In this document: piece by piece, positions 391-15,988 of the stretch
How the letters are laid out: every line of letters starts with the position of its first letter
How positions within the stretch are numbered: position 1 is the stretch's first letter
Assembly (NCBI GenBank): GCA_009702945.1
Contig: WLGZ01000001.1
Coordinates: 1 to 24,825 of the forward strand
Length of the DNA stretch: 24,825 nt
Direction: 5' to 3'
Source: Actinomycetota bacterium
Lineage (GTDB): Bacteria > Actinomycetota > Actinomycetes > S36-B12 > UBA5976
The notes under the pieces: generated by a model
Seen by the model: the letters and a program-made list of their open reading frames with translations, nothing else
Databases searched by the model: none
Told to the model about the DNA's origin: nothing
Translations under genes and position numbers: made by a program

Positions 391-1674
391 ATGTTTACCC
401 AGCAAGATGCCCTCGACCTAGATGCCAAGGATCCACTGGCAAAGTACCGAGATCTGTTTGTTTTCACCGATCCCGAAGTTTGTTACTTGGATGGCAATTC
501 GCTGGGCCGACTACCTAAATCAACTGTGGAAACCATTAACAAGTTTCTCATCGAAGGCTGGGGAACCAAGATCGTCGATGGTTGGGGCGAGTGGATCGAT
601 AAAGCAGAAACTACTGGCGACTTAATTGGCCGAGCAGCACTTGGTGCGGCCGCTGGGCAAACGTTAGCAATGGACACCACGAGCGTTAACTTTTATCGTC
701 TGGTTCGGGCTGCAATTTCAGCGCGACCTGGACGAAAAACGATTATTACAGATGAGGCCAACTTCCCTACTGATCGATACATCATGCAAGGAATTGCTGA
801 TGAGCTTGGCTTAAATCTTGTGGTGATTCCAAATGACTTGCAAGAACATTCCGCTGGAGAAACCTTTAGCGATGAATTGGTTACGCCAGAGATTCTCAAG
901 CCTTACTTAAATGATGACGTCGCTCTCGTCACGATTTCAGTGGTTGCCTACCGTTCCGGTGCACTTCATAACATCAAGGAACTAACTGATCTAGTACGTG
1001 CCAGTGGTGCCTTAATGGTTTGGGATGCCAGCCATGCCGTAGGCGCAGTCGATATGCAGTTTGATCGCGACGGCGTAGACCTAGCTGTTGGTTGCACATA
1101 TAAGTATGGAAACTCTGGACCGGGCTCCCCTGCTTGGCTGTATGCGAGCAAGAGAATTCAGTCAGAGTTGCAAATGCCGATTCAAGGTTGGTTTGCGCAA
1201 CGTAATCAATTCTTAATGGGATCTAAGTTCGATCAAATAGAAGGTATGCGCGGATTCCAAATTGCAAGCCCTTCAATTATTGGCTTGCTCTGTATCGATG
1301 AAGGTTTTGGCATGATCGAAGACGCAACGATTGCTCAGATCAATGCCAAAGCCTCAAAGGGCACTGACATGATGATCGAACTATTTGATCAGTGGTTAGT
1401 TCCGCTTGGATTTGAACTAGTTACTCCACGGGATTCAAAACTTCGTGGTGGACACATCAGTATCTATCACCCAGATGCTGCGCAAATCGCTCGAGGCTTA
1501 CGCGATGACATGAAAGTGATCCCAGATTACCGAGCCCCAAATAGCATTCGCGTTGCGATTTCACCACTTCCAACCTCTTATGTTGAAGTTTTCGATGGCT
1601 TTGAGCGGATTCGGGACTACACCAAATCTGGAAAATACAAAGACTTGGACCTCAGCAGTGTCAAAGTTTCCTAA
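391..1674 (+). CDS. kynU: Kynureninase (PLP, class V aminotransferase fold)
   Basis: YLDGNSLG, DASHAVG, GCTYKYGNSGPG (PLP lysine), GWFAQ, RGGHISI, DYRAPNSIR motifs typical of bacterial kynureninase. Confidence 0.92.
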   Translation: MFTQQDALDLDAKDPLAKYRDLFVFTDPEVCYLDGNSLGRLPKSTVETINKFLIEGWGTKIVDGWGEWIDKAETTGDLIGRAALGAAAGQTLAMDTTSVNFYRLVRAAISARPGRKTIITDEANFPTDRYIMQGIADELGLNLVVIPNDLQEHSAGETFSDELVTPEILKPYLNDDVALVTISVVAYRSGALHNIKELTDLVRASGALMVWDASHAVGAVDMQFDRDGVDLAVGCTYKYGNSGPGSPAWLYASKRIQSELQMPIQGWFAQRNQFLMGSKFDQIEGMRGFQIASPSIIGLLCIDEGFGMIEDATIAQINAKASKGTDMMIELFDQWLVPLGFELVTPRDSKLRGGHISIYHPDAAQIARGLRDDMKVIPDYRAPNSIRVAISPLPTSYVEVFDGFERIRDYTKSGKYKDLDLSSVKVS

Positions 1675-1684
1675 CTCTTAGGTC

Positions 1685-1690
1685 TACTCT
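1685..1690 (+). promoter_or_regulatory. -10 element TACTCT of a probable leaderless transcript
   Basis: TAnnnT 6 nt upstream of the ATG at 1697; no SD. Confidence 0.5.
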
Positions 1691-1696
1691 GTAAAT

Positions 1697-2293
1697 ATGA
1701 GTAACCAAATTGAAACTGCAATCACTGTTCAGCTAGATAATCGCGATCGTAAATCTGTTTTACTACGCATTTTCCTGGTCGTACCTATGGCAATCTTCAT
1801 TAGTGCCTTTACAGCTTGGTCGGGTTCTACCGAAGCCTCAACATTCCTTTCAGGTCTTTTGTTCCTGCCAGTGCTACTAGCGCTGGTATTCCGTGGCATC
1901 TATCCGTCTTACATCCTGGATTTCAATCGTTCACTTCTAGCTTTGTCTACTCGCGTTACTGCATACATTCTTTTGCTTAATGACAAATACCCGTCAATTG
2001 AAGAAAGTGCTGACGTAAAAATCACGTTCCCAGATGTTGAAGGTGGCGCAAAACTTAATCGCTATATGCCACTTGTTAAATGGCTGCTGGCCGTGCCGCT
2101 TTACTTAGTTGGCCTGGTCTACACGATTTACGGTATTGCAGTTTTGATCTTTACTTGGTTCACCATCTTGTTCACTGGAAAGATGCCAGCATTCAGCGGT
2201 GACGTTCTATTGGGAGTAACTAAATACTGGAACCGGGTTTATGGCTATGCATTCTTACTAGTTACAGATGAGTACCCAAGCTTTTCGCTCTAA
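1697..2293 (+). CDS. DUF4389-family membrane protein with two internal repeats
   Basis: Two hydrophobic halves, each ending in a similar motif (RVTAYILLLNDKYPS; RVYGYAFLLVTDEYPSF), plus LNRYMPLVKWLLAVP. Confidence 0.75.
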   Translation: MSNQIETAITVQLDNRDRKSVLLRIFLVVPMAIFISAFTAWSGSTEASTFLSGLLFLPVLLALVFRGIYPSYILDFNRSLLALSTRVTAYILLLNDKYPSIEESADVKITFPDVEGGAKLNRYMPLVKWLLAVPLYLVGLVYTIYGIAVLIFTWFTILFTGKMPAFSGDVLLGVTKYWNRVYGYAFLLVTDEYPSFSL

Positions 2294-2296
2294 CTA

Positions 2297-3091
2297 TTAA
2301 TAGCTCGGGTCTGCGGCCAAGGCTCTAAGTGCATTAGCAATCGTTTCGATCTTGGCTTGCATTGTTGTTAAGCCAAGTTCGAATGTGACGGCTGTCGCTT
2401 CAGGAAATGATGAGTTAACCCAAATCGTAAATGTTCCGGTGTAGGAGTTAGTTGGTGAGCCTGATTTTTCTCCGGGAATACATTCGGATTTGAATCCCGT
2501 TAATTGTGAAAGTCGGTCACTAATTGTTGCTGGTCGCTCAGGCGGGCAATCTATCTGTGCATAGGGCTGATGAAAAACCACGATTCGTTTTGGTTTTATG
2601 GTTTCAACGGCGTTCATTAAAGCTAACGTTTCAGGTTCACTTGCTGGACTCGGTCCGCTATAGGTTCTTGCCATTGGATCTGAAGCAACCCACTTAACTG
2701 GAAAGTTTCGATTCAGGTCAACGCCATTTGCATTGCGGCGGGTGACCAGTTCGGCGCCATCCGGATTGGCATCCCGAAGCACCCAGATTTCCGTATCGCT
2801 GGCAACAGATTGAGTCATGAGTTCATCAACTACGCGTTTGCCATCTGGTTCATCACCGTGGACTGTACCCACAACTAGCAAGGCATTATTTGAGTCGATT
2901 GCCGAGCCAATCAGTCTGCAAGCTGTAATGTCTACGCCATTGACGGATTTGCCAACAGAGATAGTTTCTTGGCAACCACCAGGTTTTATACCTTCAGGTT
3001 CCTGCCAAATTTGAAATGCCCAAACCCCAGCTACTACAGCGATAGTTAGCAATGCGCCTTCGATCAAGAACAACCAAAATTTCATGCGCAC
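2297..3091 (-). CDS. M14 zinc carboxypeptidase/amidase, MpaA-like, with an N-terminal membrane anchor
   Basis: HGDE (HxxE), NPDG, NANGVDLNRNFP, SEPET, FH (third Zn ligand), FELG (catalytic Glu); hydrophobic residues ~5-26. Confidence 0.8.
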   Translation of the reverse strand: MRMKFWLFLIEGALLTIAVVAGVWAFQIWQEPEGIKPGGCQETISVGKSVNGVDITACRLIGSAIDSNNALLVVGTVHGDEPDGKRVVDELMTQSVASDTEIWVLRDANPDGAELVTRRNANGVDLNRNFPVKWVASDPMARTYSGPSPASEPETLALMNAVETIKPKRIVVFHQPYAQIDCPPERPATISDRLSQLTGFKSECIPGEKSGSPTNSYTGTFTIWVNSSFPEATAVTFELGLTTMQAKIETIANALRALAADPSY

Positions 3092-3114: not shown

Positions 3115-4452
3115 TCACCAGCCTGTGAAAGCCGCAATCATTTCATCAGTTACTAGGCCCGATTTAGCGTCTGCAATTGCTTGAGCAATGATCCGGATGC
3201 CTTGCTCGATTTCATTTACCCGCACCGTAAGCGGTGGCGTTACTTCCAATACATTTGCGCCAACGTAATAGACAACGACTCCAAGTTCCCAAGCGCGATA
3301 CACCGTTTTCCGAGCTAGATCATGGTTTCGATTATTAGTTTCACGATCGGTGACTAGGTCAATTCCGATGGCAAGGCCGTGTCCACGGACATCGCCAACT
3401 ACATCAGCAATATCAAATTCAGTTACAAGATCACTGAATAACTCTCGAAGTTTTTGCCCCGAATTTTTGGCAAGGCTTGCAAGGTCTTGCGAAATAATAA
3501 CCTCCAGCGCAGCAATTCCCGCAGCAACACAAATTGGGTTTCCAGCAGCAGTCATCAATGCCGAACCTGTTGGACCATCAAGAATTCTTGCTGGTCCAAC
3601 CGCTGCCGATAACGGCAAGCCGCCACCGAGCATCTTGCCAAAAGTCACAATGTCAGGCACGACGTCATCGAGAAGGAAAGCGTGCAGTAAGCCAGTTCGA
3701 CCAAGGCCCACTTTTACTTCATCGCAGATAAACAAAACGTCGTAAGTCTTACAAAGGGCTGCGACTCCTTTCATAAATCCAGGTGGTGGCACGATTAAGC
3801 CACCGTCAGATTGGATTGGCTCCATGATCAAGCAGGCAACATCGCCAGCCTCAAATTCGCTTTGGATTCGCTGCAATGAATCTGCAACAGAATCTGCGAT
3901 GCTTCCCAGATGTGGTCGGAAAGGATCAGGATAGGGAATAAATGTCGCACCATCTGCGGCAGTGGTATTTGTCCCAACGTGCACACCTGAAACCCCCATG
4001 GCAAATCCGACTCCACCGTGGTAACTGTTTTCAAAAGTGATTACACGAGACTTTCCGGTGTTGAACCTGCAGGATCTCAGCACAACATCGTTCGCATCAG
4101 AGCCAGTGTTTCCAATGTAAACCCGTCGATTTTCCTCACCAGGAACTATTGATAACAGAAGTTCTGCAAACTTCACCAAATCTGGGTGGATTGCTGAAAT
4201 GCCTCCAAAGCCTGGTGGATTTGTGGCGGCTTCAACTATGGCTTTGGTAACTGTCGGGTTCCCATAACCAAGTCCACCTGCCGTCCAGCTGCTGGAAAAG
4301 TCCAGAAGTTCGCGACCTCCCGGCTCGACCAAAACAGTGCCGTTACCAGACTCTGCAACCAGCGGGAAAAATCTTAACTTCTCAACTCCAGCAACACTGG
4401 CTGCGTCACGGGTAAGTAAGTCTTGAACCAACGGATGAATAGTTGAGGCCAT
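3115..4452 (-). CDS. Class III aminotransferase-fold PLP enzyme; alpha-amino-epsilon-caprolactam / amino-acid amide racemase homolog
   Basis: KLRFFPL, W56, SYHG (Y144), EPIQSDGGLIVPP (D216), CDEVKVGL (K247), FGKMLGGGLPLSA (PLP K273), YRAWELGVVVYYVG, C-terminal FTGW. These match the recalled Achromobacter obae ACL racemase. SD AGGGAG. Confidence 0.8.
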   Translation of the reverse strand: MASTIHPLVQDLLTRDAASVAGVEKLRFFPLVAESGNGTVLVEPGGRELLDFSSSWTAGGLGYGNPTVTKAIVEAATNPPGFGGISAIHPDLVKFAELLLSIVPGEENRRVYIGNTGSDANDVVLRSCRFNTGKSRVITFENSYHGGVGFAMGVSGVHVGTNTTAADGATFIPYPDPFRPHLGSIADSVADSLQRIQSEFEAGDVACLIMEPIQSDGGLIVPPPGFMKGVAALCKTYDVLFICDEVKVGLGRTGLLHAFLLDDVVPDIVTFGKMLGGGLPLSAAVGPARILDGPTGSALMTAAGNPICVAAGIAALEVIISQDLASLAKNSGQKLRELFSDLVTEFDIADVVGDVRGHGLAIGIDLVTDRETNNRNHDLARKTVYRAWELGVVVYYVGANVLEVTPPLTVRVNEIEQGIRIIAQAIADAKSGLVTDEMIAAFTGW

Positions 4453-4461
4453 AAGTACTCC

Positions 4462-5601
4462 CTAGTTAAGTTCGTAAGCGAGTTTGGCATTTGCATAACC
4501 GATGCTATCGGTTACGTGCTTTGCGTCGGCTAAACTCCAAAGTCCTTGGTCAACCCACTCTGCCAGAACTCTGCCGAAGCCATATCTAAACATTGCTGCA
4601 CCCATATACGTCAGCTCTGATAGACCCCAAGCATCTGAACTAAACAAAATTTTGTGAAAGGGTGCGAGTTCTAATGACTCAGCAATTATCGCTTCGCTGC
4701 GAGCACCGGTGTAGTTGATTGCTAATCCAACATCGAGATAGACATTTTCAAACATTTGGGCCAAGTAGCCTGCGTTGCGATGGAACGGGTATGTGTGCAA
4801 CAACATAACTGGAACTTTTCGCGACTCGGCATGCTTAATAAAATTTGTCATCAATAGCGGATCGCATAAATGTAGATACAAGTCTGGATCACCGTAACCA
4901 ATATGAAATTGGATCGGAAGATTAAGTTCTAGCCCAGCAAAAATAAGGTGCCTTAACAAGATTGGATCATCGATTCTGGCTGGTGCCCCAGAATCCACTT
5001 GTCGAAGCACTGGTTCGATTGCTTTCTGCACCTCTTGTTGACTTGGAGGACACGGTTCAAAATGTAATCCGTACCGATAAGCCACAATGCTTTTCAGGCC
5101 AACTGCACCTTTGGCGGCAATTGCAAGTTCACGCGCAAAATCACTTACAAAAGATTCGGAAGTTACCGTCCCGGAATCCAATAGTTTCTCGGCCGTGGTT
5201 TCGAGGCGAATGACTTTATCTACTTTGTGACCAGCTAACTTTGCCATTCCTTCTGGTCCATGAATTTCAGTGCCCCTAAAGCCAGTTTCGATTAACGAGT
5301 GGGTTACACCACACGCTGTTAGAAATCGACGATTGACTTCGGAGGCGCCGAGTTCAATGCGCCTAGCGAAATAACTTTGTGGATTGCAGTGAGCTGGCAA
5401 ATCAAGTAATGGAGCACACCATTTTCTGGTTGTAAAACCAACTTGACTATTCATGGCAATATCTAAAGTCTTTGGCTGCCGATCTGATTCAGTAATCATG
5501 TTTGAAAACTCATCTACGGTTGGGTTGTTTTCATAAACCCCATGTACGTGATGATCGACTAATCCAACGTGATTAACATAATCTTGAATTTCTGAACTCA
5601 T
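4462..5601 (-). CDS. Metal-dependent amidohydrolase, FluG/NodGS N-terminal-domain type (start refined to ATG 5601)
   Basis: DHHVHG, LKSIVAYRYGL, QFHIGYGDPDL, LLHTYPF, VYLDVG, KILFSSDA motifs. TAAGGT SD 5 nt before ATG 5601. Confidence 0.8.
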   Translation of the reverse strand: MSSEIQDYVNHVGLVDHHVHGVYENNPTVDEFSNMITESDRQPKTLDIAMNSQVGFTTRKWCAPLLDLPAHCNPQSYFARRIELGASEVNRRFLTACGVTHSLIETGFRGTEIHGPEGMAKLAGHKVDKVIRLETTAEKLLDSGTVTSESFVSDFARELAIAAKGAVGLKSIVAYRYGLHFEPCPPSQQEVQKAIEPVLRQVDSGAPARIDDPILLRHLIFAGLELNLPIQFHIGYGDPDLYLHLCDPLLMTNFIKHAESRKVPVMLLHTYPFHRNAGYLAQMFENVYLDVGLAINYTGARSEAIIAESLELAPFHKILFSSDAWGLSELTYMGAAMFRYGFGRVLAEWVDQGLWSLADAKHVTDSIGYANAKLAYELN

Positions 5602-5609
5602 CAAAGACC

Positions 5610-6902
5610 TTAATAAGCTTCGTTGTATCGAGCGCACTTTGCAGCACCATCAAGGCCAGCCAAAGTTTTTTCCTCGCTTGCTCGGATTCCCAAGTGGGTA
5701 TCAATTAGATCTTTTGCAAACCAGGTTTGCATAACACTGTTGGCGTTAAATGCTGCAATTGCCTCATTTAAGGTCGCAGGTAATTGTGGAACATCGACGT
5801 TATCCACGTGATCATCCACGATTTGATCAATTTTCAAATCTCGATCCAGGCCATCGGACATGGCATTGATGAGACAAGACATAACCAAATATGGGTTTGC
5901 AGTTGCGTCTGCAGCTCTATATTCAACATTGAAAATCTTGTTAGGGTCTGAGCCACTTGGAATTGGGCAAATACGAAGTAAGGCCTCACGATTTTGTCGC
6001 CCGATGCAAATTCCCCCAGCACTCCAGCGATGTGGAGTCAGGCGCAATGCAGAAATCTGACTTGGAGCAGTCCAAGCCAAAATTCCCTCAGCATGATCCA
6101 AAACTCCAGCAAAAGCCGACTCAGCGACACTCGATAGCCCAGCTTTTCCTTTCGGATCGTAAGTGAATGGCTTGCCATTTTTAGTCAAGGAGATATGAAC
6201 GTGCACCCCGTTACCGACTGCATCAGGGTGTGGAATTGGCACAAATGTTGCGTGCAGCTTATTCTCACGTGCCACATGTCTGATTAATTCTTTGAGAATT
6301 ACTGCGTGATCGCATGCAGTAAGGGCGCCTTGCGGTGTCATAGTTACTTCAAATTGACCTGCACCATATTCTGGAAGCCAGTTTTCCAATTCAATTCCCG
6401 CAGCAATGCAAGCATCCCAAACTTCACTACCGAATGGCTCCGATGCCAACATGGCATCGAGACCAAACGGTGATCCCGGGAGCGATGAGCCATCCTCTCG
6501 CTTTGTCACAAACTCATGTTCAAAAGATGCAACTACTTCTAATCCATGGTCGTTGCGAAGTCGTTCGATAGCAATCTTCAAGTTACTTCTTGGGCAGCAC
6601 TCCCAAGGCTTGCCGTCCATCGTGTACTGATCAGCTAAATAGATCTCTACGTCACGACCATATTCCTTACCCCGAAATACCGCTTTCGTTGTTAAATCCG
6701 GAATCAGTCTCAAGTCACCTAATGCGCCAAATGGGTTTGGATCAGCAAGGGCACCAAAGGCATTAAGTGCTAGATCTGCTGGGACCCATCCCACGCCTGA
6801 TGTTGGATTTAGTTCGGATTTAGGCAACGACCTGCCGCGCGTAATGGCAACTAAATCATTGACTGCAATGAATGCAAAAGGTTCGACGCTATCCGATTTC
6901 AT
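5610..6902 (-). CDS. Glutamine synthetase-like gamma-glutamyl-amine ligase (PA5508/PauA7-like), not a true GS
   Basis: GS catalytic motifs FEHEF, PEYGAGQFEV, NGVHVHISL, NREALLRI, EYRAADATANPY. Subfamily motifs ITRGRSLP, GWVPA, GDLRLIPD. The flap reads PHRWSA instead of PGYEAP. Confidence 0.85.
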   Translation of the reverse strand: MKSDSVEPFAFIAVNDLVAITRGRSLPKSELNPTSGVGWVPADLALNAFGALADPNPFGALGDLRLIPDLTTKAVFRGKEYGRDVEIYLADQYTMDGKPWECCPRSNLKIAIERLRNDHGLEVVASFEHEFVTKREDGSSLPGSPFGLDAMLASEPFGSEVWDACIAAGIELENWLPEYGAGQFEVTMTPQGALTACDHAVILKELIRHVARENKLHATFVPIPHPDAVGNGVHVHISLTKNGKPFTYDPKGKAGLSSVAESAFAGVLDHAEGILAWTAPSQISALRLTPHRWSAGGICIGRQNREALLRICPIPSGSDPNKIFNVEYRAADATANPYLVMSCLINAMSDGLDRDLKIDQIVDDHVDNVDVPQLPATLNEAIAAFNANSVMQTWFAKDLIDTHLGIRASEEKTLAGLDGAAKCARYNEAY

Positions 6903-7647
6903 GAGTTGTTACATCTCCTGTGTTTCTGTTTATTCTCAGTAGTGATCCGTTCTTAAGCTCATTAAAGTTGTTAGGGTTCGGCCTAACACCGGATGACCAG
7001 GCAGAAGTTACACCTTCAACTGATTGCCAAAACAGATCGTAATAATCTGGCTGCAATTCTGGACTCCGATTTTCAGGCTTATGTTGGCACACAATAACAA
7101 GTTCGGTTTCCGTCAGGATCATGGCGTTAATCGACGTGTAATGTATCGGCGCAAAATCCTTTACAAGTGCCTGATAAGCCGCGACTAAATCTCCGTCAGA
7201 TTTTCGCAACTGAGTTAGTAACGCAGCAAAGTACTGTTCGCTATCAGTATCGCCTTCTAGTTCGGCCAGGTAATCAGCATCGATTAATGCATTTAAGGAA
7301 TCACCTCTGGCAACTCCCCCATTGTGAATGAAAGCGATTTCTCCCATAGAGCTTTTCTTAACAAATGGATGGGTGTTTGGAATGCAAACCGCAAGTTCCT
7401 CGGTTGCCCACCGCAAATGTGCAATGGCATCAGTCGATTTCATTTGCGTAACAAGATCTGAATAAACCTTGGATTTATGAGCTGGGCTAGTGTCTCTCAC
7501 TAATTTGATTTCATCGGCTTCGCCATAGGCAATGCCCCAGCCATCGCGGTGGATCGTGCTTAGTTCTGTAAAGGCTGGAAGATCTGAACCAAGAGCCGCA
7601 TCAACACTCAATGGGTTGGTGCTATGCCAAGCAAACAATCGGCACAA
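6889..7647 (-). CDS. Class II (Ntn) glutamine amidotransferase-like protein, EgtC/YafJ-like; probable gamma-glutamyl hydrolase
   Basis: TTG start giving M-C-R-L-F (Cys2 nucleophile); HRDGWG, AHLRWAT, NTHPF, FIHNG, GDTDSE motifs. The 3' end overlaps the GS-like start by 14 bp. Confidence 0.82.
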   Translation of the reverse strand: MCRLFAWHSTNPLSVDAALGSDLPAFTELSTIHRDGWGIAYGEADEIKLVRDTSPAHKSKVYSDLVTQMKSTDAIAHLRWATEELAVCIPNTHPFVKKSSMGEIAFIHNGGVARGDSLNALIDADYLAELEGDTDSEQYFAALLTQLRKSDGDLVAAYQALVKDFAPIHYTSINAMILTETELVIVCQHKPENRSPELQPDYYDLFWQSVEGVTSAWSSGVRPNPNNFNELKNGSLLRINRNTGDVTTHEIG

Positions 7648-7649
7648 AG

Positions 7650-8537
7650 TTACACCTTTTCCTGAGTACGTTTCCCAAAAATACCATTGGGGAAAATTGA
7701 CAAGATGATAACCACGATCGTGTAAGTGATCGCATCACGATATGGCATTACATTCGGTGGCAACCAAGTCTGTAGCGCGATTTCAATTGCGCTCAATATG
7801 AATCCGCCTGCTACTGCTCCAGTTAGGCTTCCAAGTCCACCAATTACTGCCACAATAAATGCCGCTAACACTGGCTTGAATCCCATTAAGGGGTCAACTG
7901 AACCTCTTTGGATTACCCAAAGCACGCCAGCGACACCAGCTAGTAATCCAGACAACAAAAAGGCAAACGAAATCAATCTAGATGCCTTAACGCCCATTAA
8001 GCCAACAATTTCAAAGTCATCGGCCGCAGCTCTAATTGCCCAGCCCCAATAACTTCGGTCGAAAAAGAACTTAAGGGCTAACAGCGCAAGAACACCAACT
8101 GTGATCGACATGATTTGTACTTTTGAAATCTGAGAATTACCAATCGAAAGCGAAGTAGTTAACCAAGTTGGTACCGGGACTGCTTGACCTCTAGGTGAGA
8201 TTCCATTTTGAAACAAAACTTGGAGCAACATCGAAACTGCGAAGCTTGTCATAAGTAGAGTTGCGCCACTGGCATTCCGAACAGGTCTGAAAGCGGCAAA
8301 TTCCATCAAGGCCGCAGAAATGCCACCTGCAATTACAGCCACGAAAACCGCCAACCAGAACGGCTGTCCCGTCAAGATTCCAGCGAGAAGAACATAACCG
8401 GTTAGGGTCATTAATTCACCGTGTGCAAAGTTAATAAGTCCCAGCACACTGAATATGACTGCCAAACCAAGTGCTAATAGTGCATAAGTGCCACCTAGCG
8501 AGATGACATTTACAAGGTAGGAAATTAGAGCATCCAC
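7650..8537 (-). CDS. Branched-chain amino acid/amide-type ABC permease (LivH-like)
   Basis: YALLALGLAVIFSVLGLINFAHGE, GWAIRAAADD, MGV, VIGGLGS motifs; multiple TM segments; GTG start overlaps the upstream TAG. Confidence 0.9.
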   Translation of the reverse strand: MDALISYLVNVISLGGTYALLALGLAVIFSVLGLINFAHGELMTLTGYVLLAGILTGQPFWLAVFVAVIAGGISAALMEFAAFRPVRNASGATLLMTSFAVSMLLQVLFQNGISPRGQAVPVPTWLTTSLSIGNSQISKVQIMSITVGVLALLALKFFFDRSYWGWAIRAAADDFEIVGLMGVKASRLISFAFLLSGLLAGVAGVLWVIQRGSVDPLMGFKPVLAAFIVAVIGGLGSLTGAVAGGFILSAIEIALQTWLPPNVMPYRDAITYTIVVIILSIFPNGIFGKRTQEKV

Positions 8538-9247
8538 TACTCAGCACCTCCTAAGTAAACCTTTTTAACTTCGTCGGAAGTTCTTAAGTCTGCAGCTAGG
8601 CCTTCAAGTGCAATCTCTCCAGTAGACATTGCATATGCGCGATCGGCGAATTTAAGAACTCGCATTACTTCTTGTTCCACAATGACCATGGCAAGGCCAG
8701 TCTTGCGCAAGTCGGACAACAACTGATAAACCGCATCAACAATTGTCGGGGCTAAGCCAAGAGATGGCTCATCAATTAATAAAAGTTTTGGTCGAGACAT
8801 TAATGCTCGAGCGATTGCAACTTGCTGTTGTTCGCCACCGGACAAAGTTCCGGAAACTTGTTGGAGTCTTTCCCGAAGAATCGGAAGGCGATTTAATAAA
8901 TCATCGAATAAGTCATCGGACTTGGCTTTACGTGGTGCACCTAGCATCAGATTTTCGCGCACTGTTAGATGAGGAAAAAGTCGACGCCCTTCGGGCACTA
9001 ACGACAGTCCCAACGAAACAATTCGTTCAGTTGGCGCACCGGTGATATCTTGACCCGCAAAATTTACCGCGCCTTGGGATTTAATCAAACCCACAATTGC
9101 TCGTAAAGTTGAAGATTTGCCCGCACCATTAGGGCCAAGGAGGGCGACTACTTCGCCCTCCTTGACCTCAAGGTTGCTGCCGCGCACAGCCTTAACCGCT
9201 CCATATGAAATGGAAAGGTCTGTGGTTGTCAGCAGTGTGTTACTCAT
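8537..9247 (-). CDS. ABC ATPase (LivF-like)
   Basis: Walker A GPNGAGKS, VPEGRRLF, signature LSGGEQQ, Walker B LLLIDEPSLGLAP. Confidence 0.93.
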   Translation of the reverse strand: MSNTLLTTTDLSISYGAVKAVRGSNLEVKEGEVVALLGPNGAGKSSTLRAIVGLIKSQGAVNFAGQDITGAPTERIVSLGLSLVPEGRRLFPHLTVRENLMLGAPRKAKSDDLFDDLLNRLPILRERLQQVSGTLSGGEQQQVAIARALMSRPKLLLIDEPSLGLAPTIVDAVYQLLSDLRKTGLAMVIVEQEVMRVLKFADRAYAMSTGEIALEGLAADLRTSDEVKKVYLGGAE

Positions 9248-9249
9248 TT

Positions 9250-10482
9250 CTACAACTGAGCCTTTGGCACGGTTGCAGGATCTGGAGAGAACGTTCCAAC
9301 AAGTGAACGTTCGCTGTTCTTGATTTCAACCAAGGCAACTTCACGAATAGCCATGCGATCGCCACCCTTGTAGCTGATTGCTCCAGTTATGCCTTGAGCG
9401 CCTTCAAGATTTGACCATGCTTGCCAAATCGCATCTGCGTCACAGCTCTGTGCCTGCTTAACAACAGCGTCAAGGGTAAGTCCTAGTTCATAACCTGTTA
9501 CCGCATAGATGGTCTCAGGATCTTTACCGTACTTACCGTTGTAGTCAGTGAAGAAAGTGCTCATTGCGCCTTCATTCTTCAATACACCAGCAGTTGTGTA
9601 GGTAACACCTTCAGCAATATCTGCAAGCGCCAATGTTGTAGGTGAATCGATACCATCTGTTCCAAGAACAGCGGCAGTGATTCCTGCGCCACGTAGTGCC
9701 TTAATGAAGGTTGGGAAATCAGGCTCATACGCAGGAGTCATGATGACATCTGGCGCTGGACTTAGTGCCTTGATTTCATCAACAATCACGCTGAAGCTTG
9801 CTTGTCCCATTGAGAAGGTGCCTTCTCCGACAACTTTGCCACCGTTAGCTTCAAATGCTTCTTTGAAATAGCCTGGCAACAAGTTTGTGTAGGCACTATC
9901 AGGTGATCCAAGTGTGTATGCATTCTTGTAACCCATTTCGGTTGCATGGTCTGCAAGAACCTTGGCTTGTGTGTTGTCACCAAATGCATTTGAGAACATG
10001 TGGTCGCCAACTGCAAGCGGCAAAATTGGCGAGGAGCCAAACCAAGATACGGCAGCAATGCCAGCATCCTGAGCCAACTGACCGGCTGCGATTGATGGGT
10101 CAGCATCGCCAGGAGTGATCAGGATACTGATTTCCTCAGCTACCAATTCAGCTGCCACGGTTGCGGATTGTGCCGCATCCGAGCGAGTGTCCTTGACTAC
10201 TGTTTCAATCGTAAACTTTCCGTCTACTCCACCAGCGGCATTAACTTGCTCTGCCCATAGTTCAAATCCCTCAAGATTTGGTACGTCAATGTATGCAAGG
10301 CCACCAGTCTGGCTTCCCGCTACACCAACTTTTACCGTGCAGGCCGCACCAGCTGCAGGAGCAGTTGCTTCGCCGCTCGCTGTGGCTTCTCCGTCACCAC
10401 TAGCACAAGCAGACAAAAGCATGATTGCACTTAGGCTCACGGCCATCTTTGTGACCTTAGAAGGTCCAGACTTTCGTTGCAT
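9250..10482 (-). CDS. ABC substrate-binding lipoprotein, LivK/Leu-binding type I periplasmic-binding fold (start refined to ATG 10482)
   Basis: Lipobox LLSAC after a basic N-terminus; GSQTGGLA, DTRSDA, VLGTDG motifs. SD AAAGGT 8-9 nt before ATG 10482, which removes the overlap with the upstream gene. Confidence 0.88.
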   Translation of the reverse strand: MQRKSGPSKVTKMAVSLSAIMLLSACASGDGEATASGEATAPAAGAACTVKVGVAGSQTGGLAYIDVPNLEGFELWAEQVNAAGGVDGKFTIETVVKDTRSDAAQSATVAAELVAEEISILITPGDADPSIAAGQLAQDAGIAAVSWFGSSPILPLAVGDHMFSNAFGDNTQAKVLADHATEMGYKNAYTLGSPDSAYTNLLPGYFKEAFEANGGKVVGEGTFSMGQASFSVIVDEIKALSPAPDVIMTPAYEPDFPTFIKALRGAGITAAVLGTDGIDSPTTLALADIAEGVTYTTAGVLKNEGAMSTFFTDYNGKYGKDPETIYAVTGYELGLTLDAVVKQAQSCDADAIWQAWSNLEGAQGITGAISYKGGDRMAIREVALVEIKNSERSLVGTFSPDPATVPKAQL

Positions 10483-10489
10483 TAGTTCA

Positions 10490-12319
10490 CTACCTTTCGT
10501 TATTTGTTGTTGTTTTTTCATCAACTGATGATTCTTCTCCCCAGCCTAAATATGCAGCATGCACTTCGGGTAGAGATAAGATTGTTTCTGGATCTCCCTG
10601 GGCAATTACCCGGCCGTGATCCAAGACGGTTAGCGAATCGCAGGCTGATCTAATCAACGTCACATCGTGATCGATCAGTAGCATGCCAGCGTTTGCTTGC
10701 TTCATGATTTGGCGAAATTGAGCCAAGAGTTCAGCTGATTCTGCTGGATTCATTCCAGCAGCTGGTTCATCAAGAAGAAGAACGGAAGGCTTAAGCGCAA
10801 GAGCTCTAGCAATTTCTACGCGTCGCTGATCGCCGAATGAAAGTTCGCCGGCAAATCGATACGCGTGATGCATAACGCCAACTTGATTAAGTAGGGATAG
10901 TGCAGATTTATCAGAATCCTTAACTGATTCACCAGCAGAGATGCAAGCAACAACGACGTTGTCCAATACTGTCAACTCTTTAAACAGTCTGATGTTCTGG
11001 AAAGTGCGACCGAGACCAGACCTAGCGCGCTTCCAAGTTTTTTCCTTGCTGATCTTTAGGTCGCCAAGGTGAATTTCCGCAGAATCGGCCTTAGAAATGC
11101 CAGTGATGCAGTTGACCATAGTTGACTTGCCTGAGCCATTTGGTCCAATCAATCCGGAGATTTTGCCTCGCTCGACAAACATGCTGGCATCATCAAGGGC
11201 GACTAAACCTGAGAATCGCTTGGTGATGTTAGTTGCAGTTAAAACTGGCTTACCGGACGGGAGTTGTTCGGCAACTGGAATTGTTGCATCAAGATTCGGT
11301 GAGTCCCCACGATACGCAGAAATTTCCTCAGGTTCATGGAAGCCCATAATTCCCTTTGGCCTCAGATACAGAGTCAATAAAATAATGATTGCAAGGCCTG
11401 CATTGGTTAAACCAAACAAGCCAATGCTGTCGCCAATCTTTCGCAAGTTTTCTATAACGGCCATTACAAGAACAACCCCAACGACTGCGCCGGCTACCGA
11501 ACCTGAGCCACCCACAATCAGCATTGTTAAAAGTGTCAAAGTTAATGTGAAGTAGAAATCTTTCGGCGAAAATGCACCAAGAAGACCGGCATAACATGCA
11601 CCCATTCCACCCGCGACAGCTGCCGAAAGCACCCAGGCTTTGAATTGACTTCGTTGGATGCGCACACCAGCGCTCGAAGCTGCAATAACGTCATCACGTG
11701 AAGCCCTGACATGGATTCCAGTTTTTGAATCTCTAAACCATCGAGCAATAATCAATGCGATTATTGCAACTGTTGCCGCAACCGGAACGCTGGTAAAGCG
11801 CTTAACGCCATAAAACGTCTGACTACCTCTGGTGAAATCTTCAGCACCAACAAGCGTGCTGTGAATAATGATTAGAATTCCAACCGTAGCAATCGATGCA
11901 GAATCCCGAAGTCTGGCAATTACTAAACCTGATAGCGCTCCCACAAGCGTTGCTGCTAGCACTCCGCACAACATGGCAATTGGAAAGATAAATGTTGTAT
12001 CTTGCAAGAACACTGGGAGCGTTGAAAGCGATGTCTGCTTAACAATTGGAGTCATGGACAAGATGCCAGTTGTATAAGCCGAAACGCCAACAAAACCGAC
12101 GTGACCGAAACTTAGAATGCCACTATTGCCACTAAATATTTGAAGCGCTAACACGCCAATTAAAAGCGTCAAAGCATTTGCCAAAAGTAGTTGAGGTGCC
12201 TTCGACATGCCGTTTCCGAAGAGGCCCACCAAGGCAATCAAAAGTGACCAAAAAACCATGGACGTATAGCGTCTGGACAATCGGGATTTAGTCAGGGCTT
12301 CAGGAATAAGTTTCAACAC
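10490..12319 (-). CDS. Fused ABC permease (LivM-like) and ATPase (LivG-like)
   Basis: N-terminal TM domain with GILSFGHVGFVG and IVGGSGS; C-terminal GPNGSGKS, RTFQNIRLF, LSFGDQRR, LLLDEPAAG, LIDHD. Confidence 0.92.
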   Translation of the reverse strand: MLKLIPEALTKSRLSRRYTSMVFWSLLIALVGLFGNGMSKAPQLLLANALTLLIGVLALQIFSGNSGILSFGHVGFVGVSAYTTGILSMTPIVKQTSLSTLPVFLQDTTFIFPIAMLCGVLAATLVGALSGLVIARLRDSASIATVGILIIIHSTLVGAEDFTRGSQTFYGVKRFTSVPVAATVAIIALIIARWFRDSKTGIHVRASRDDVIAASSAGVRIQRSQFKAWVLSAAVAGGMGACYAGLLGAFSPKDFYFTLTLTLLTMLIVGGSGSVAGAVVGVVLVMAVIENLRKIGDSIGLFGLTNAGLAIIILLTLYLRPKGIMGFHEPEEISAYRGDSPNLDATIPVAEQLPSGKPVLTATNITKRFSGLVALDDASMFVERGKISGLIGPNGSGKSTMVNCITGISKADSAEIHLGDLKISKEKTWKRARSGLGRTFQNIRLFKELTVLDNVVVACISAGESVKDSDKSALSLLNQVGVMHHAYRFAGELSFGDQRRVEIARALALKPSVLLLDEPAAGMNPAESAELLAQFRQIMKQANAGMLLIDHDVTLIRSACDSLTVLDHGRVIAQGDPETILSLPEVHAAYLGWGEESSVDEKTTTNNER

Positions 12320-12418
12320 CGCACCCCATTCCCCTCATACAGGCTTTCTTTGAATCAAACCCTAGGAAGTAAGGGGCGTCAAGGGAAACGGGGAAACAGG
12401 TGCAATTGGTTACGTTCG

Positions 12419-13231
12419 CTATTCCTCGGTCTTTATGTAAGGGGTGCCGTTATCCCATAATTGGCAAGTTAACTTCAGGTTTGCAGTCAGATTTCGGATT
12501 ATCCCTTCATGTGATGGGTTTATCACAATAAAGACCCCTCCTGAGAATTCACTATCATCGCGCCTTAAAGAATCGGCAATTCGATCAAGTGGCTGGAAAT
12601 GCATGCCTTCCCAGCCGATGCTTCGGTAGGTGTCGGCACAAATTGCAAGCTTGTTTTTGCCACCCTGGGCCCAGCCCATGATTCCGATGTAGTGGCCTAC
12701 ATTCCAATCGGCTGGTGGCTCTTGAACCTTATGTCCAGATAGGAATCCAAAAGCCGTTGCCGGTTCGGATTTACCACCCCACAAGAAGCGTGTGGCACTA
12801 TTTGCAATCAATAATGCAGGTTGATTTAGGTCAACTAATGCTTCGAGGAGGTTTTCTATAATTTCTGCAGTCCACTCGCCTCGCAACGGTATTGCAACAA
12901 GTTTTGAATCAGCTAGTTCATTAGTTGCAACCAAAAGACCTTCAGGTGAAGTACCAGTTATGTTGCTGTCATCAATACGCGGCAATTCAAGAATGTAGTC
13001 AGACCGACCAGCATCATTTGGAGGTAGTGATTCATTAGTTTGAATCTTGCTTAGGATTGAGCCCGCAGCGAGGCCAACGTGATCTTGTTCAACTTTTACT
13101 GAGGCCAGCGCACGAAGCGCAAGAGTGATCCAAAATGCACCGCACAACTCATTTTTTTGCGGCATTTCACTTGCATGTTCAGCAAGTAAAAGTTCAGATC
13201 CGGGCAACATTTGGATTGTGTATTGACTCAT
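12419..13231 (-). CDS. Hypothetical protein with papain-like (phytochelatin synthase / C39-like) Cys-His-Asp motifs
   Basis: PQKNELCG (Q25, C30), VGHY (H180), CADTY (D200); no signal peptide. The fold is inferred from motif order only. Confidence 0.6.
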   Translation of the reverse strand: MSQYTIQMLPGSELLLAEHASEMPQKNELCGAFWITLALRALASVKVEQDHVGLAAGSILSKIQTNESLPPNDAGRSDYILELPRIDDSNITGTSPEGLLVATNELADSKLVAIPLRGEWTAEIIENLLEALVDLNQPALLIANSATRFLWGGKSEPATAFGFLSGHKVQEPPADWNVGHYIGIMGWAQGGKNKLAICADTYRSIGWEGMHFQPLDRIADSLRRDDSEFSGGVFIVINPSHEGIIRNLTANLKLTCQLWDNGTPYIKTEE

Positions 13232-13287: not shown

Positions 13288-14913
13288 TTAGTCCACATTG
13301 TCCATTGAGTCAGAACCCATTCCACCTGGTGCTTCAGGTGTGGTCTTTTGAACCTGCATCAAGAAGTCAAGGTTGCTCTTGGTTTCGCGAAGCTTAGTTA
13401 GCAAAAGTTCAAGAGCTTGCTGGGAATCAAGTGCGTGAAGCACGCGACGAAGCTTCCAGATGACCTTAAGTTCATCAGCAGCAAGAAGAATTTCTTCGCG
13501 ACGAGTTCCGGATGCTTCAACATCAACCGCTGGGAAGATACGACGATCTGCCAGGCGACGATCCAGCTTAAGTTCCATGTTGCCAGTTCCCTTGAATTCT
13601 TCGAAGATAACTTCGTCCATTCGAGATCCGGTATCAACAAGAGCTGTAGCCAAGATTGTTAGTGAGCCACCCTCTTCGATGTTGCGAGCAGCACCGAAGA
13701 ACTTCTTTGGTGGATACAACGCAGCTGAGTCAACACCACCGGAAAGAATACGGCCGGATGCTGGCGCCGATAGGTTGTACGCACGACCAAGACGAGTCAT
13801 TGAGTCCAAAAGAACTACAACGTCATGTCCCATTTCAACCAAACGCTTTGCGCGCTCAATGGCAAGTTCAGCAATTGTGGTGTGGTCTTCAGCTGGACGG
13901 TCGAAAGTTGAAGCAATAACTTCACCCTTAACTGAGCGCTGCATGTCGGTAACTTCTTCAGGTCGTTCATCTACCAAAACAACCATCAAGTGAACTTCAG
14001 GATTGTTTTCAGCAATCGCATTTGCAATGTTCTGCAAAATCATGGTCTTGCCCGCCTTTGGTGGCGAAACAATCAGACCGCGCTGACCCTTACCAATCGG
14101 TGCAACCAAGTCAATTACACGAGTAACTAAGTTGTTTGGCACGGTTTCAAGGCGCAAGCGATCCTGTGGGTAAAGCGGAGTTAGCTTGCCGAAATCAACG
14201 CGCTTAATTGCTTCGTCTGGTTCAAGTCCATTAATGGACTCGATGCGAACAAGTGGGTTGAACTTCTGTGGGCGATCACCTTCGCGTGGCTGCTTAACCT
14301 GACCAGTTACTGCATCACCCTTACGAAGTGAGAAACGTTTAACTAATCCCATTGACACATAAACGTCGTTTGGACCTGGCAAGTAGCCAGAAGTACGAAC
14401 GAATGCGTAATTGTCGAGAATGTCGATGATTCCAGCCACTGGCAAAAGAACATCGTCATCAGAAACTTCTAAATCGTAATCGCGATCTCCACCACGGGCG
14501 CCACGATTGTTACGACCATTGCTGTTGCGATCATTGCGATCACGTCCACGGCGGTTACGTCCGTTGCGATCATTACGATCGCTACGATCGTTGCGGTCAC
14601 CACGATCATTGCGATCGTTGCCTTCAGATTCGCCATCGTTGTTACGAGGCGCGCGCTCTTCACGTTCTTCACGTGGTGCACGTTCTTCACGTGGTGCGCG
14701 CTCTTCTTTTGCTGATTCGCTCTTAGCAGCGCCAGCTGGGCGGGATGCAGAACGACTGCCTCTACCGCCACCTTGCTTGGCACCAATTGCCTTAACAAGT
14801 TCGGCTTTGCGCATTCCAGAAGCGCCATCAATTCCCAGACCGGCAGCCATTGTCTTTAGTTCTGGAAGAAGTTTTGAGTTCAGCCCTTTATCTTGGGCAG
14901 TTGTCTCGGTCAC
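13288..14913 (-). CDS. rho: Transcription termination factor Rho with an actinobacterial N-terminal insertion
   Basis: LPELKTMA...MRKAEL N-terminal helix, [61 protein letters not shown] start with AAAGGA SD. Confidence 0.99.
14510..14706 (-). repeat. Low-complexity repeats in the Rho insertion: EERAPR repeats, including an exact 18-bp tandem duplication at 14662-14697, and RND/RNG tripeptide repeats
   Basis: acgttcttcacgtggtgc occurs twice in tandem. The protein reads [21 protein letters not shown]...[32 protein letters not shown]. Confidence 0.9.
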
Positions 14914-14961
14914 GTATGTGTCCTTTATGTTTTGAGTGGTTTTAGATCCAGCAGTAATGCA

Positions 14962-14995
14962 CGGAATTTTCGCGAGAATTTTTGCGGGATTTTCG
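14962..14995. repeat. Three imperfect 11-12 bp tandem repeats in the rho 5' leader
   Basis: CGGAATTTTCG / CGAGAATTTTTG / CGGGATTTTCG. Confidence 0.65.
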
Positions 14996-15021
14996 GTGAA
15001 AGAGATTCAACCGATGTCTTA

Positions 15022-15030
15022 AGACTAGCA
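15022..15030 (-). promoter_or_regulatory. Extended -10 (TGC-TAGTCT) of rho, giving a ~100-nt leader
   Basis: TGn plus TAnnnT, followed by a 5' hairpin at 15014-14993. The same hexamer occurs before argS. Confidence 0.55.
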
Positions 15031-15073
15031 GGTCCAGCACTTTGACGCGAAATTGCCTTCAAATCTTGAGGTT

Positions 15074-15988
15074 TTAATCCGCTTCGGGTGCAACGTCATT
15101 GTTGTCAGGAATCGCGCCTTCGTCCGCGACGCCCACAGGAGCTGCAGTAAACCCAGATTTAGCAATGATTTCCGAAGCCTGGGTAACCTGATCACTGGTA
15201 CTTAAGGCAATTACAGTCGGGCCTGCCCCGCTGATGCAGGCAGCAATTTGTGCCTCACGCAGTTGGGCAACTAGTTCCATAGATTCTGGATAAGCCTGGG
15301 CGCGAAATGGTTGATGCAACTTATCTTCAGTTGCTTCCAACAAGAAATCTGGATCACCAATCATGGCAGCAACTAGCAGTGCTGATCTACCGGCATTAAA
15401 TGCTGCATCGACATGAGGGATTGATTCTGGAATTAATCCTCGTGCCTTGTGAGTATCTAACTCAGTCTGCGGGATACCCAGTACTGGGCAAACATCTGGA
15501 TGAACATTCATTGAAACTGAATTTGCTTTGCCATCATCTTCCAGCCAAGCAATAGTCATGGCGCCTAGTAAGCAAGCAGCAACATTGTCTGGATGTCCTT
15601 CGATGGTATTAGCCATCTGCAACAATTCGTCTTCGCTAGCACGTGCATAAGTTAACTCGCTAGCCAGAACTAGACCGGCAACAATTGCCGCGGCACTCGA
15701 CCCCAGGCCTCGACCTTGCGGAATTGCGTTCTTGCATTCAACATGCAGCCCGGTGACATCCGTGCCGAATGCTTTGCAGGCATCAATGATTGTTTTGGCA
15801 ATCAAGTGAGTGCCATCAGTTGGAAGTTTGCCAGCACCTTGGCCCGTTACTTCAACAGTGATCTTGTTGTCGTCAGTAAATTGCGCAGTGACAAAGTCGC
15901 GAATCTCAAGAGCTAATCCAAGGGCGTCATAACCAGGTCCAAGATTGGCGCTGGTTGCCGGAACTGAAACCGAAACTATGCGTGACAT
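15074..15988 (-). CDS. thrB: Homoserine kinase
   Basis: VPATSANLGPGYD, IPQGRGLGSSAAA (GHMP motif), EGHPDNVA, ISGAGPT. The start overlaps the thrC stop (TAATG). Confidence 0.97.
   Translation of the reverse strand: MSRIVSVSVPATSANLGPGYDALGLALEIRDFVTAQFTDDNKITVEVTGQGAGKLPTDGTHLIAKTIIDACKAFGTDVTGLHVECKNAIPQGRGLGSSAAAIVAGLVLASELTYARASEDELLQMANTIEGHPDNVAACLLGAMTIAWLEDDGKANSVSMNVHPDVCPVLGIPQTELDTHKARGLIPESIPHVDAAFNAGRSALLVAAMIGDPDFLLEATEDKLHQPFRAQAYPESMELVAQLREAQIAACISGAGPTVIALSTSDQVTQASEIIAKSGFTAAPVGVADEGAIPDNNDVAPEAD

Follow-up and report, generated by a model that had tools for sequence, protein, structure and literature searches.

Ligation of glutamate and its later release, with the genes clustered beside a transporter, is the plan shared by the Puu pathway of Escherichia coli, the Pau pathway of Pseudomonas aeruginosa, the GlnA2, GlnA3, and GlnA4 systems of Streptomyces and Mycobacterium, and the pathways for aniline, 1-naphthylamine, and isopropylamine. 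These gamma-glutamylation pathways are established, as are the association of glutamine synthetase-like (GS-like) ligases with Amidohydro_2 genes, the PA5506-PA5509 unit of P. aeruginosa, and the glnA3-SCO6961 pair of Streptomyces coelicolor. Here, we analyzed a window of 24,825 nucleotides, which is the whole stretch of DNA under study (positions 1 to 24,825 of contig WLGZ01000001.1, assembly GCA_009702945.1). The window is contig C1 of a 1.06-Mb metagenome-assembled genome (MAG, 66% complete) of an Actinomycetota bacterium, and it carries a nine-gene operon at 3115-13231 on the minus strand that appears to follow the same plan with a different set of enzymes.

The window departs from pathways of the Puu and Pau type in that no oxidase, dioxygenase, or aldehyde dehydrogenase stands between ligation and release. 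Instead, the intervening enzymes are a pyridoxal phosphate (PLP) racemase and a binuclear-type metal amidohydrolase, and the deglutamylase candidate is a class-II N-terminal nucleophile (Ntn) hydrolase, where the Puu pathway has the class-I enzyme PuuD. Within the P. aeruginosa PA5506-PA5510 cluster, PA5508 (= PauA7) is the closest solved homolog of the window ligase; compared to this cluster, the window has GATase_4 and Amidohydro_2 proteins in place of the FGase and isochorismatase hydrolases, an ATP-binding cassette (ABC) system in place of the APC permease, and none of the RpiR genes found in loci of this type. A table of the Crc (catabolite-repression) regulon of P. aeruginosa lists PA5508 and PA5510, and polyamines reportedly do not induce PA5508 (PMC6478659, citing Yao 2011). 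The same paper notes the association of GS-like ligases with Amidohydro_2 genes, referring to earlier work. The S. coelicolor operon glnA3-SCO6961-SCO6960 co-transcribes a GS-like ligase with an Amidohydro_2 protein, as in the window pair, a likeness at the level of the protein families; it is induced by polyamines, and its description mentions no racemase, no Ntn hydrolase, and no adjacent importer (PMC5403932). In fungal FluG and plant NodGS, an Amidohydro_2 domain is fused to a GS-like domain, and both domains share their best structural relatives (2QPX and PA5508/4HPP) and their catalytic residues with the window pair. The latter, however, consists of two genes, ligase then hydrolase, and, unlike FluG/NodGS, it stands among genes for a racemase, an Ntn hydrolase, and an importer. 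The alpha-amino-epsilon-caprolactam (ACL) racemase of A. obae (2ZUK) and the amino-acid-amide racemase of O. anthropi (6GIO), which share catalytic and substrate-contact residues with the window enzyme, are familiar from biocatalysis, whereas the window homolog sits in a conserved operon. In the literature searched, we found no characterized pathway with this enzyme set, as the earlier note on this DNA had supposed (a partial earlier bioinformatic description is possible), no description of an ACL-type racemase and a class-II Ntn hydrolase kept with a dedicated importer, no physiological pathway for ACL or amino-acid-amide racemases, and no in vivo substrate assigned to PA5508, 2QPX, FluG, or the ACL racemase (ACLR).

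Genes were taken from a list of open reading frames (ORFs), and families were assigned by Pfam and NCBIfam scans. Of the nine genes in the interval, eight are coupled by overlaps or gaps of at most 9 bp. In the direction of transcription, a DUF6885 gene (12419..13231) is separated by a 99-bp gap from a gene for a fused LivM-type permease and LivG-type ATPase (LivMG, 10490..12319). The gene for the lipoprotein substrate-binding protein (SBP, 9250..10482) follows after 7 bp if its start is placed at Met15 (10482), just before the lipobox LLSAC; the longest ORF (9250-10524) would instead overlap LivMG by 35 bp. After 2 bp comes a LivF/UrtE-type ABC ATPase (8537..9247), which overlaps a LivH-type permease (7650..8537) by 1 bp, and after a further 2 bp the Ntn hydrolase gene (6889..7647), which overlaps the ligase gene (5610..6902) by 14 bp. 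The amidohydrolase gene (4462..5601) lies 8 bp further on if it starts at 5601, as in 379-aa homologs, while its longest ORF (4462-5637) would overlap the ligase gene by 28 bp. The racemase gene (3115..4452) follows after 9 bp, and 23 bp separate its stop from the start of an M14 peptidase gene on the same strand (2297..3091). Between 2297 and 13231, the Pfam and NCBIfam scans returned neither an oxidoreductase nor a class-I glutamine amidotransferase. Almost the whole window runs on the minus strand, including the upstream housekeeping block argS-lysA-hom-thrC-thrB-rho, so that co-directionality is weak evidence here, and coupling and conservation carry the weight. The earlier note, made from the sequence alone, had described nine co-directional genes, eight of them tightly coupled with a papain-like gene 99 bp upstream, and no oxidoreductase among them; the ORF coordinates and the scans agree with this, and Pfam and NCBIfam bear out all of its family calls.

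The racemase gene encodes a class-III, fold-type-I PLP enzyme that scores 385 bits against the ACL racemase 2ZUK and 342 bits against the amino-acid-amide racemase 6GIO in the PDB. Scores against other class-III enzymes are lower: 233 bits for isoleucine 2-epimerase, approximately 184 bits for gamma-aminobutyrate aminotransferase (GABA-AT), 157-160 bits for PuuE, and 143 bits for putrescine aminotransferase. The alignment with 2ZUK is full-length, with an identity of roughly 45-50% by eye, and in it W56, Y144, D216, K247, and K273 align with W49, Y137, D210, K241, and K267 of ACLR, while the C-terminal Gly-Trp is kept. For A. obae ACLR, we take Lys267 to form the Schiff base, Tyr137 to be the second base, and Asp210, Lys241, and Trp49 to contact the substrate. 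In addition, a Glu of the window enzyme occupies what is presumably the position of the carboxylate-binding Arg in GABA-AT. All of these positions, including the Glu and the Gly-Trp, are invariant in 18 racemase homologs. Judged by its sequence, the enzyme is a homolog of the ACL and amino-acid-amide racemases and no typical transaminase, which upholds the earlier assignment to the amino-lactam/amide racemases. Amino-lactams as well as the amides and esters of amino acids are substrates of characterized ACLR-clade enzymes (PMC7431475).

The ligase (Gln-synt_C, 233 bits) has its best PDB match in 4HPP (PA5508) with 288 bits, while true GS reaches at most 124 bits. All true-GS models of NCBIfam score it under their cut-offs, and the top model, gamma-glutamylputrescine synthetase NF045547, gives 264 bits at a cut-off of 650, i.e., too little for a PuuA equivalog. 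The protein keeps the equivalents of 4HPP E131, E133, E180, E187, H236, H238, R290, R308, R313, and E332 (metal, ATP, and Glu ligands from Table 3 of PMC6478659), and it has a Trp at the position of 4HPP W296, replacing the catalytic flap Glu of GS (E304). By these residues, it is best described as a PA5508-type ATP-dependent gamma-glutamyl ligase whose ligands for ATP, metal, and Glu are intact, and the earlier call of a gamma-glutamyl ligase stands. For the amidohydrolase (Amidohydro_2, 2QPX/FluG-N type), 2QPX is the sole PDB sequence match (143 bits). All seven residues considered in 2QPX, namely the HxH motif, the carbamylatable Lys, Tyr, His, His, and Asp, are kept (roles according to PMC6478659), and the His, Lys, Tyr, and Asp ligands are invariant or nearly so in 32 homologs. 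The AF2 model (pLDDT 94) matches 2QPX in Foldseek with a TM of 0.84 and an E of 1e-24, followed by uronate isomerases with a TM of about 0.65. The protein is a predicted amide or lactam hydrolase.

The two halves of fungal FluG have been modeled on, and can be functionally replaced by, 2QPX and PA5508 (PMC6478659), and since these two proteins are also the best solved relatives of the window amidohydrolase and ligase, the adjacent window genes can be regarded as a split FluG. They are not a FluG-type fusion, with the ligase at 5610-6902 and the amidohydrolase at 4462-5601 being separate genes, and a complex prediction for the two proteins, an idea taken from that fusion, scored 0.00, which counts neither way. 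Throughout the homologous loci examined, Amidohydro_2 homologs always adjoin a PA5508-type ligase. Sister clusters with ligases 50-59% and amidohydrolases 57-66% identical to those of the window were found on freshwater metagenome or MAG contigs whose names point to Nanopelagicaceae. Two of them (L002, 6426-12543, and L006, 5083-11182) comprise an APC permease, a PF04199 cyclase/arylformamidase-like protein, the ligase, and the amidohydrolase, and a second GS-like gene lies after the pair in L002 and upstream of the permease in L006. A third (L004, 6542-13387) comprises a GS-like protein, GATase_4, the ligase, the amidohydrolase, a trans-3-hydroxy-L-proline dehydratase, and a P450. The idea that a proline racemase replaces the racemase in L004 was rejected, as the protein in question is the dehydratase (NF047722, 618 bits, cut-off 550) and has Ser/Thr for both catalytic Cys.

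The stand-alone Ntn hydrolase (GATase_4, 74 bits; EgtC/YafJ-like) begins with (M)CRLFAWHS and carries RWAT, HNGG, and DTDSE, glutamine-site motifs by analogy with GlmS and PurF. Its sole PDB match is 1TE5, and the EgtC model TIGR03442 yields 52 bits at a cut-off of 219, so that it does not qualify as an EgtC equivalog. With its Met-Cys start and the glutamine-site motifs kept, the earlier call of a glutamine amidotransferase-type hydrolase is sustained, and the protein is a predicted gamma-glutamyl-amide hydrolase, i.e., a deglutamylase. The first gene product of the operon, DUF6885 (PF21819, 226 bits), had been called papain-like, and its Gln/Cys/His/Asp order on a papain-fold model (AF2, pLDDT 97) confirms this; Q25, C30, H180, and D200 are invariant in 42 homologs, and no signal peptide was predicted. 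In Foldseek, Nostoc Alr0975, a primitive phytochelatin synthase, ranks second among the PDB matches (E 4e-5, TM 0.41-0.57), the others being papain-fold proteases; with 11-14% identity, these matches hold at the level of the fold only. A language-model look-alike belongs to the Pfam family Phytochelatin (score 0.94). On the model, DUF6885 is a cytoplasmic papain-fold Cys enzyme resembling phytochelatin synthase, and it probably serves as an accessory gamma-glutamyl-peptide hydrolase or transferase. Elsewhere, it is coupled to a GS-like ligase or an amino-acid permease, the coupling to the GS-like ligase being translational in locus L094.

Two further loci (L062, 1111-3251, and L095, 5206-7313) have a cysteine-desulfurase-like class-V PLP enzyme of the TIGR01976 family directly after DUF6885. 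Taken with the EgtC-like Ntn hydrolase, this pairing bears a loose resemblance to the ergothioneine enzymes EgtC and EgtE, and by that analogy, a thiol-containing gamma-glutamyl substrate for DUF6885 is conceivable. A protein of 6326 residues (P0242) in the representative library contains approximately 31 stretches matching the C-terminal region of DUF6885; this could reflect a genuine giant repeat protein or an artefact of assembly. At the other end of the operon, the membrane-anchored M14 zinc peptidase (Peptidase_M14, 81 bits) has a hydrophobic N-terminus and reaches 73 bits against the MpaA model (cut-off 157). It is kept after the racemase in L011-L014 with 64-77% identity; in L016, a decarboxylase and an FmdA-like amidase take its place. 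The peptidase could release the substrate outside the cell and is a possible tenth gene of the operon.

The importer consists of two BPD_transp_2 permeases, two ATPases, and a Peripla_BP_6 lipoprotein, a composition that places it in the HAAT (Liv/Urt) family. In the LivMG fusion, BPD_transp_2 covers residues 45-290 and ABC_tran residues 375-520, and the LivG model gives 209 bits, under its cut-off. Likewise, the second ATPase (ABC_tran, 117 bits) scores under the cut-offs of UrtE (209 bits) and LivF (200 bits), while the LivH-type permease matches BPD_transp_2 with 136 bits. The SBP belongs to the LivJ/UrtA superfamily (Pfam 168 bits), but its closer matches are weak (LivJ model 65 bits, UrtA model 57 bits, PDB 4GNR 90 bits); no LivJ or UrtA equivalog cut-off was reached, and PDB matches of this strength do not allow a ligand to be named. 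Transport should be inward because the SBP is a lipoprotein, and SBP-dependent ABC systems import. In four riverine metatranscriptomes, each from a different study, Logan contigs align to most of the operon with 92-100% identity. Word depth is 26-70 in contigs over the SBP gene (window 9052-10700) and 1-6 over the other operon genes, roughly a tenfold difference, and the depth over rho is similar to that over the SBP gene. Such uneven depth in RNA libraries is typical of SBP mRNAs, and DNA carry-over is hard to invoke, though contigs cannot prove transcription or a single transcript.

To follow the operon in other genomes, an alignment of racemase homologs was scanned against one genome per prokaryotic species, which gave 515 relatives. 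The best 80 loci were kept and searched with the window proteins by tblastn, and loci whose flanks reach 5 kb or more upstream of the racemase and 3 kb or more downstream were counted (n = 60). The Ntn hydrolase, the GS-like ligase, and Amidohydro_2 all lie within 6 kb of the racemase in 36 of these 60 loci, 16 have none of the three, and the Ntn hydrolase co-localizes with the racemase in 38. The earlier note had made its proposal depend on the co-occurrence of the genes in other genomes, and with all three partners present in 36 of 60 loci, it is not refuted. Positive loci were found in Mycobacterium/Mycolicibacterium, Microbacteriaceae, Nocardioidaceae, Jatrophihabitans, Acidimicrobiales, Ferrimicrobium, and Nanopelagicales, in two actinobacterial classes; many of them are mycobacterial and mutually non-independent. 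In the mycobacterial layout (L036, Mycolicibacterium litorale), an RpiR gene and GATase_4 face GS-like, APC permease, racemase, and Amidohydro_2 genes on the opposite strand. The APC permease stands in for the ABC system here, so the type of transporter is exchangeable. When the ligase of this cluster was checked for a solved relative nearer than PA5508, such as M. tuberculosis GlnA3, 4HPP was again the sole PDB match under 1e-30. In 27 loci, the cluster is adjoined by an Orn/Lys/Arg-type decarboxylase gene, which is compatible with a basic amino acid product and no proof of one. A Lac Pavin MAG (L011) has the same operon with a 99% identical racemase, and the names given to homologs place the window genome among the freshwater acI/Nanopelagicales Actinomycetota.

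In Alpha- and Gammaproteobacteria, genes for RpiR, an FGase-family hydrolase, and an isochorismatase-family amidase diverge from those for a GS-like protein, a transporter, and the racemase. We take this set of RpiR, FGase, isochorismatase, GS-like, and APC genes to match that of the PA5506-PA5510 locus of PAO1. The ligase, the racemase, and the transporter are thus kept in the proteobacterial module, while both hydrolases are swapped for unrelated amide hydrolases, a pattern that fits a pathway of one ligation and two amide hydrolyses. Forty-five Klebsiella plasmid records carry a racemase homolog, with the module forming an IS-flanked six-gene island. On one of these plasmids (L097, Klebsiella pneumoniae, NZ_CP056223.1, 61879-68582, IncFIB), it comprises an isochorismatase-family hydrolase, an FGase, a MurR/RpiR protein, a GS-family protein, an APC permease, and the ACLR-like enzyme, beside IS5, IS1, and IS21 transposases. 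Racemase homologs also occur on Sinorhizobium, Ensifer, and Shinella plasmids. Other racemase neighborhoods again contain amide or lactam hydrolases, but of different kinds: Desulfovibrionaceae have an operon with a Liv ABC system, a creatininase, and an asparaginase and without a ligase, and further ones contain an M20 peptidase or FmdA/AmdA amidases. No substrate-specific equivalog emerged when the APC permeases, the RpiR regulator, and the isochorismatase homolog were scanned with NCBIfam.

Our preferred reading, which generalizes the scheme of the earlier note, is a tentative one, to which we give a little less than an even chance: the operon would serve the uptake and catabolism, and thereby nitrogen scavenging, of a small chiral alpha-amino amide, lactam, or ester by import, racemization, glutamylation, hydrolysis, and deglutamylation. 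The lipoprotein SBP and the Liv-type ABC system would import a compound in which a free alpha-amine neighbors the carbonyl of an amide, lactam, or ester, and the ACLR-type racemase would interconvert its D and L forms. The PA5508-type ligase, using ATP, would then join the gamma-carboxyl of glutamate to the free amine, the 2QPX-type amidohydrolase would cleave the amide or lactam bond of the substrate itself, and the Cys2 Ntn hydrolase would strip off the glutamyl group, leaving glutamate and an L-amino acid. DUF6885 would have an accessory role in the handling of gamma-glutamyl peptides, and the substrate may be liberated extracellularly by the M14 ectopeptidase. The analysis shows how the genes are ordered and coupled, which families they belong to, that catalytic residues are intact, that the set is co-conserved while transporter and hydrolases are exchanged for functional counterparts, and that RNA libraries contain it; we infer the substrate class, each reaction, and the reaction order, and lysine or ornithine lactam likewise. 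The likely candidates for the substrate are an alpha-amino-acid amide or an alpha-amino lactam; lysine or ornithine lactam would be a candidate that fits the recurring decarboxylase, and metabolomics papers include 3-amino-2-piperidone among their metabolites.

A number of observations weigh against this reading. One relative, L013, whose racemase is 84% identical, has no DUF6885, ligase, or amidohydrolase in an interval (4494-12162) that otherwise shows the same flanking synteny of rho, ABC genes, GATase_4, racemase, and M14; elsewhere in its genome, only a 42% paralog of the amidohydrolase is found. If the Ntn hydrolase were purely a deglutamylase, it would have no substrate in L013, where GATase_4 is more diverged (65% identity) than its neighbors (81-91%). 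The L062 cluster, with the order RpiR | DUF6885, cysteine-desulfurase-like PLP enzyme, ABC genes, GATase_4, ligase, racemase, lacks the amidohydrolase, and the window protein used as a query did not find one in the L062 genome either. Conversely, the ligase/amidohydrolase pair also occurs without any racemase, at 50-66% identity in the sister clusters, and also in Streptomyces, where polyamines induce the glnA3-SCO6961 operon (PMC5403932). Furthermore, the window ligase is only about 30% identical to the ligase of the mycobacterial cluster, there is no evident chemical need for glutamylating an amino-amide before its hydrolysis, and, with uronate isomerases as the nearest structures after 2QPX, the reaction of the amidohydrolase may be non-hydrolytic. 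The cluster is modular, so its nine genes do not have to belong to a single linear pathway. Within the order, a racemase homolog is present in 9 of 121 genomes, including that of the window, and in 4 of 12 other genomes of the same genus; due to this patchy distribution, the operon can be regarded as accessory.

From these observations follows the strongest rival, which we nevertheless consider unlikely, namely that two modules lie side by side. The importer, the racemase, and the Ntn hydrolase (possibly with M14) would be a self-sufficient unit that racemizes and directly hydrolyzes a D/L amino-amide or a glutamine-like amide, and the ligase and the amidohydrolase (possibly with DUF6885) would be an inserted split-FluG cassette that handles the product or a related amine, e.g., by trapping the released amine as a gamma-glutamyl amide. 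L013 agrees with this, having the first unit alone and jointly missing DUF6885, the ligase, and the amidohydrolase, as do the other contexts of the ligase/amidohydrolase pair (APC permease and cyclase, or GATase_4, trans-3-hydroxy-L-proline (t3LHyp) dehydratase, and P450), the translational coupling of DUF6885 to a GS-like ligase in L094, and the ligase-free Desulfovibrionaceae operon of ABC, creatininase, racemase, and asparaginase genes. However, the four enzymes stand together in 36 of 60 loci from two actinobacterial classes, and the proteobacterial ligase stays with the racemase while the hydrolases change. The Ntn hydrolase also keeps the glutamine-site motifs expected for a gamma-glutamyl substrate, and precisely in L013, it has diverged further (65%) than its neighbors (81-91%). 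A gamma-glutamylation of polyamines or monoamines of the GlnA3/PuuA kind, to which we attach little probability, would turn the class-III enzyme into a PuuE/SpuC-like omega-transaminase, give the amidohydrolase or the Ntn hydrolase the role of PuuD, and make putrescine, cadaverine, or a monoamine the ligase substrate. Consistent with this are the top NCBIfam match of the ligase (gamma-glutamylputrescine synthetase, 264 bits, cut-off 650), the diamine-making Orn/Lys/Arg decarboxylase that adjoins the cluster in 27 loci, and the polyamine-induced co-transcription of the Amidohydro_2 protein SCO6961 with glnA3 (PMC5403932). Yet the cluster has neither an oxidase nor an aldehyde dehydrogenase, and its SBP is of the Liv type and not of the PotD/PotF type. 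Moreover, the class-III enzyme scores 385 bits against ACL racemase and 157-160 bits against PuuE, carries the ACLR-specific Asp, Lys, Tyr, and Trp, and has a Glu where we assume GABA-AT to have its carboxylate-binding Arg. PA5508, too, is reportedly not polyamine-induced (Yao 2011, as cited in PMC6478659).

With the same chemistry, the substrate might instead come from peptidoglycan, a source to which we give only a slim chance: D-isoglutamine or amidated meso-diaminopimelate (DAP) would be freed by M14, imported, epimerized at the D-amide center, and turned into glutamate or DAP. In actinobacterial peptidoglycan, these two occur naturally as alpha-amino-acid amides of D configuration. The downstream M14 protein is distantly like MpaA, i.e., like a gamma-D-Glu-DAP amidase, the regulators of homologous clusters belong to the MurR/RpiR family, the FGase-family replacements of the Ntn hydrolase act on N-acyl-L-glutamate according to their family annotation, and some relatives have genes for a polysaccharide deacetylase, NagA/NagB, or an L,D-transpeptidase nearby. 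This support is circumstantial, however, as M14 scores under the MpaA cut-off and is missing from most homologous clusters, the nearby cell-wall genes may be chance, and the Orn/Lys/Arg decarboxylase is left unexplained. Finally, a biosynthetic or signaling role like that proposed for fungal FluG, in which the operon would make a gamma-glutamylated metabolite and the transporter would export it or bring in a precursor, seems very improbable to us. It is true that FluG, in which the same two domains are fused, is needed for a developmental signal, and that the bacterial halves complement it (PMC6478659). But SBP-dependent ABC systems import, the gene set is rich in hydrolases, PA5508 and PA5510 are in the table of the P. 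aeruginosa Crc regulon, the Klebsiella module is an IS-flanked accessory island, and the distribution in the order is patchy (9 of 121 genomes).

With regard to the surroundings of the operon, the argS-lysA-hom-thrC-thrB-rho block (13288-24441, minus strand) lies directly upstream. From the rho stop to the DUF6885 start, there are 56 bp with no prominent terminator-like site, and read-through from rho is therefore possible. The rho product is long (541 aa), with the RNA-binding domain starting at residue 159, and between hom and lysA there is a 348-aa ORF on the plus strand (18521-19567) that has no Pfam match. A kynureninase gene (TIGR01814, 217 bits, cut-off 246) and a gene for a DUF4389 protein (391-2293, plus strand) converge on the 3' end of the operon; in L013, the M14 gene is likewise followed by two ORFs that match these in length (427 aa and 198 aa) and orientation, so the synteny is apparently kept. 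An Rfam scan of the window returned no RNA element, and promoter and terminator scans of the window gave sites no more numerous than in shuffled sequence.

A wider interpretation of the operon is possible but doubtful. It would be the unfused bacterial form of FluG/NodGS and, together with the PA5506-PA5510-type and plasmid modules, would represent a widespread ATP-driven gamma-glutamyl tagging of D/L alpha-amino amides, lactams, or esters on their way to L-amino acids. For the ACL racemase, the PA5508-type ligase, the 2QPX-type amidohydrolase, and FluG, structures have been solved or industrial use exists, and here they are united in a conserved operon with a dedicated importer, which makes the function directly testable. 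Given the acI/Nanopelagicales freshwater lineage, the substrate would belong to the dissolved organic nitrogen of lakes, and the IS-flanked islands on Klebsiella IncF plasmids and the modules in environmental mycobacteria point to a mobile, ecologically selected trait. If true, the wider interpretation would provide the first physiological role for ACL racemases, PA5508, 2QPX-type amidohydrolases, and DUF6885, and a pointer to the substrate class of FluG.

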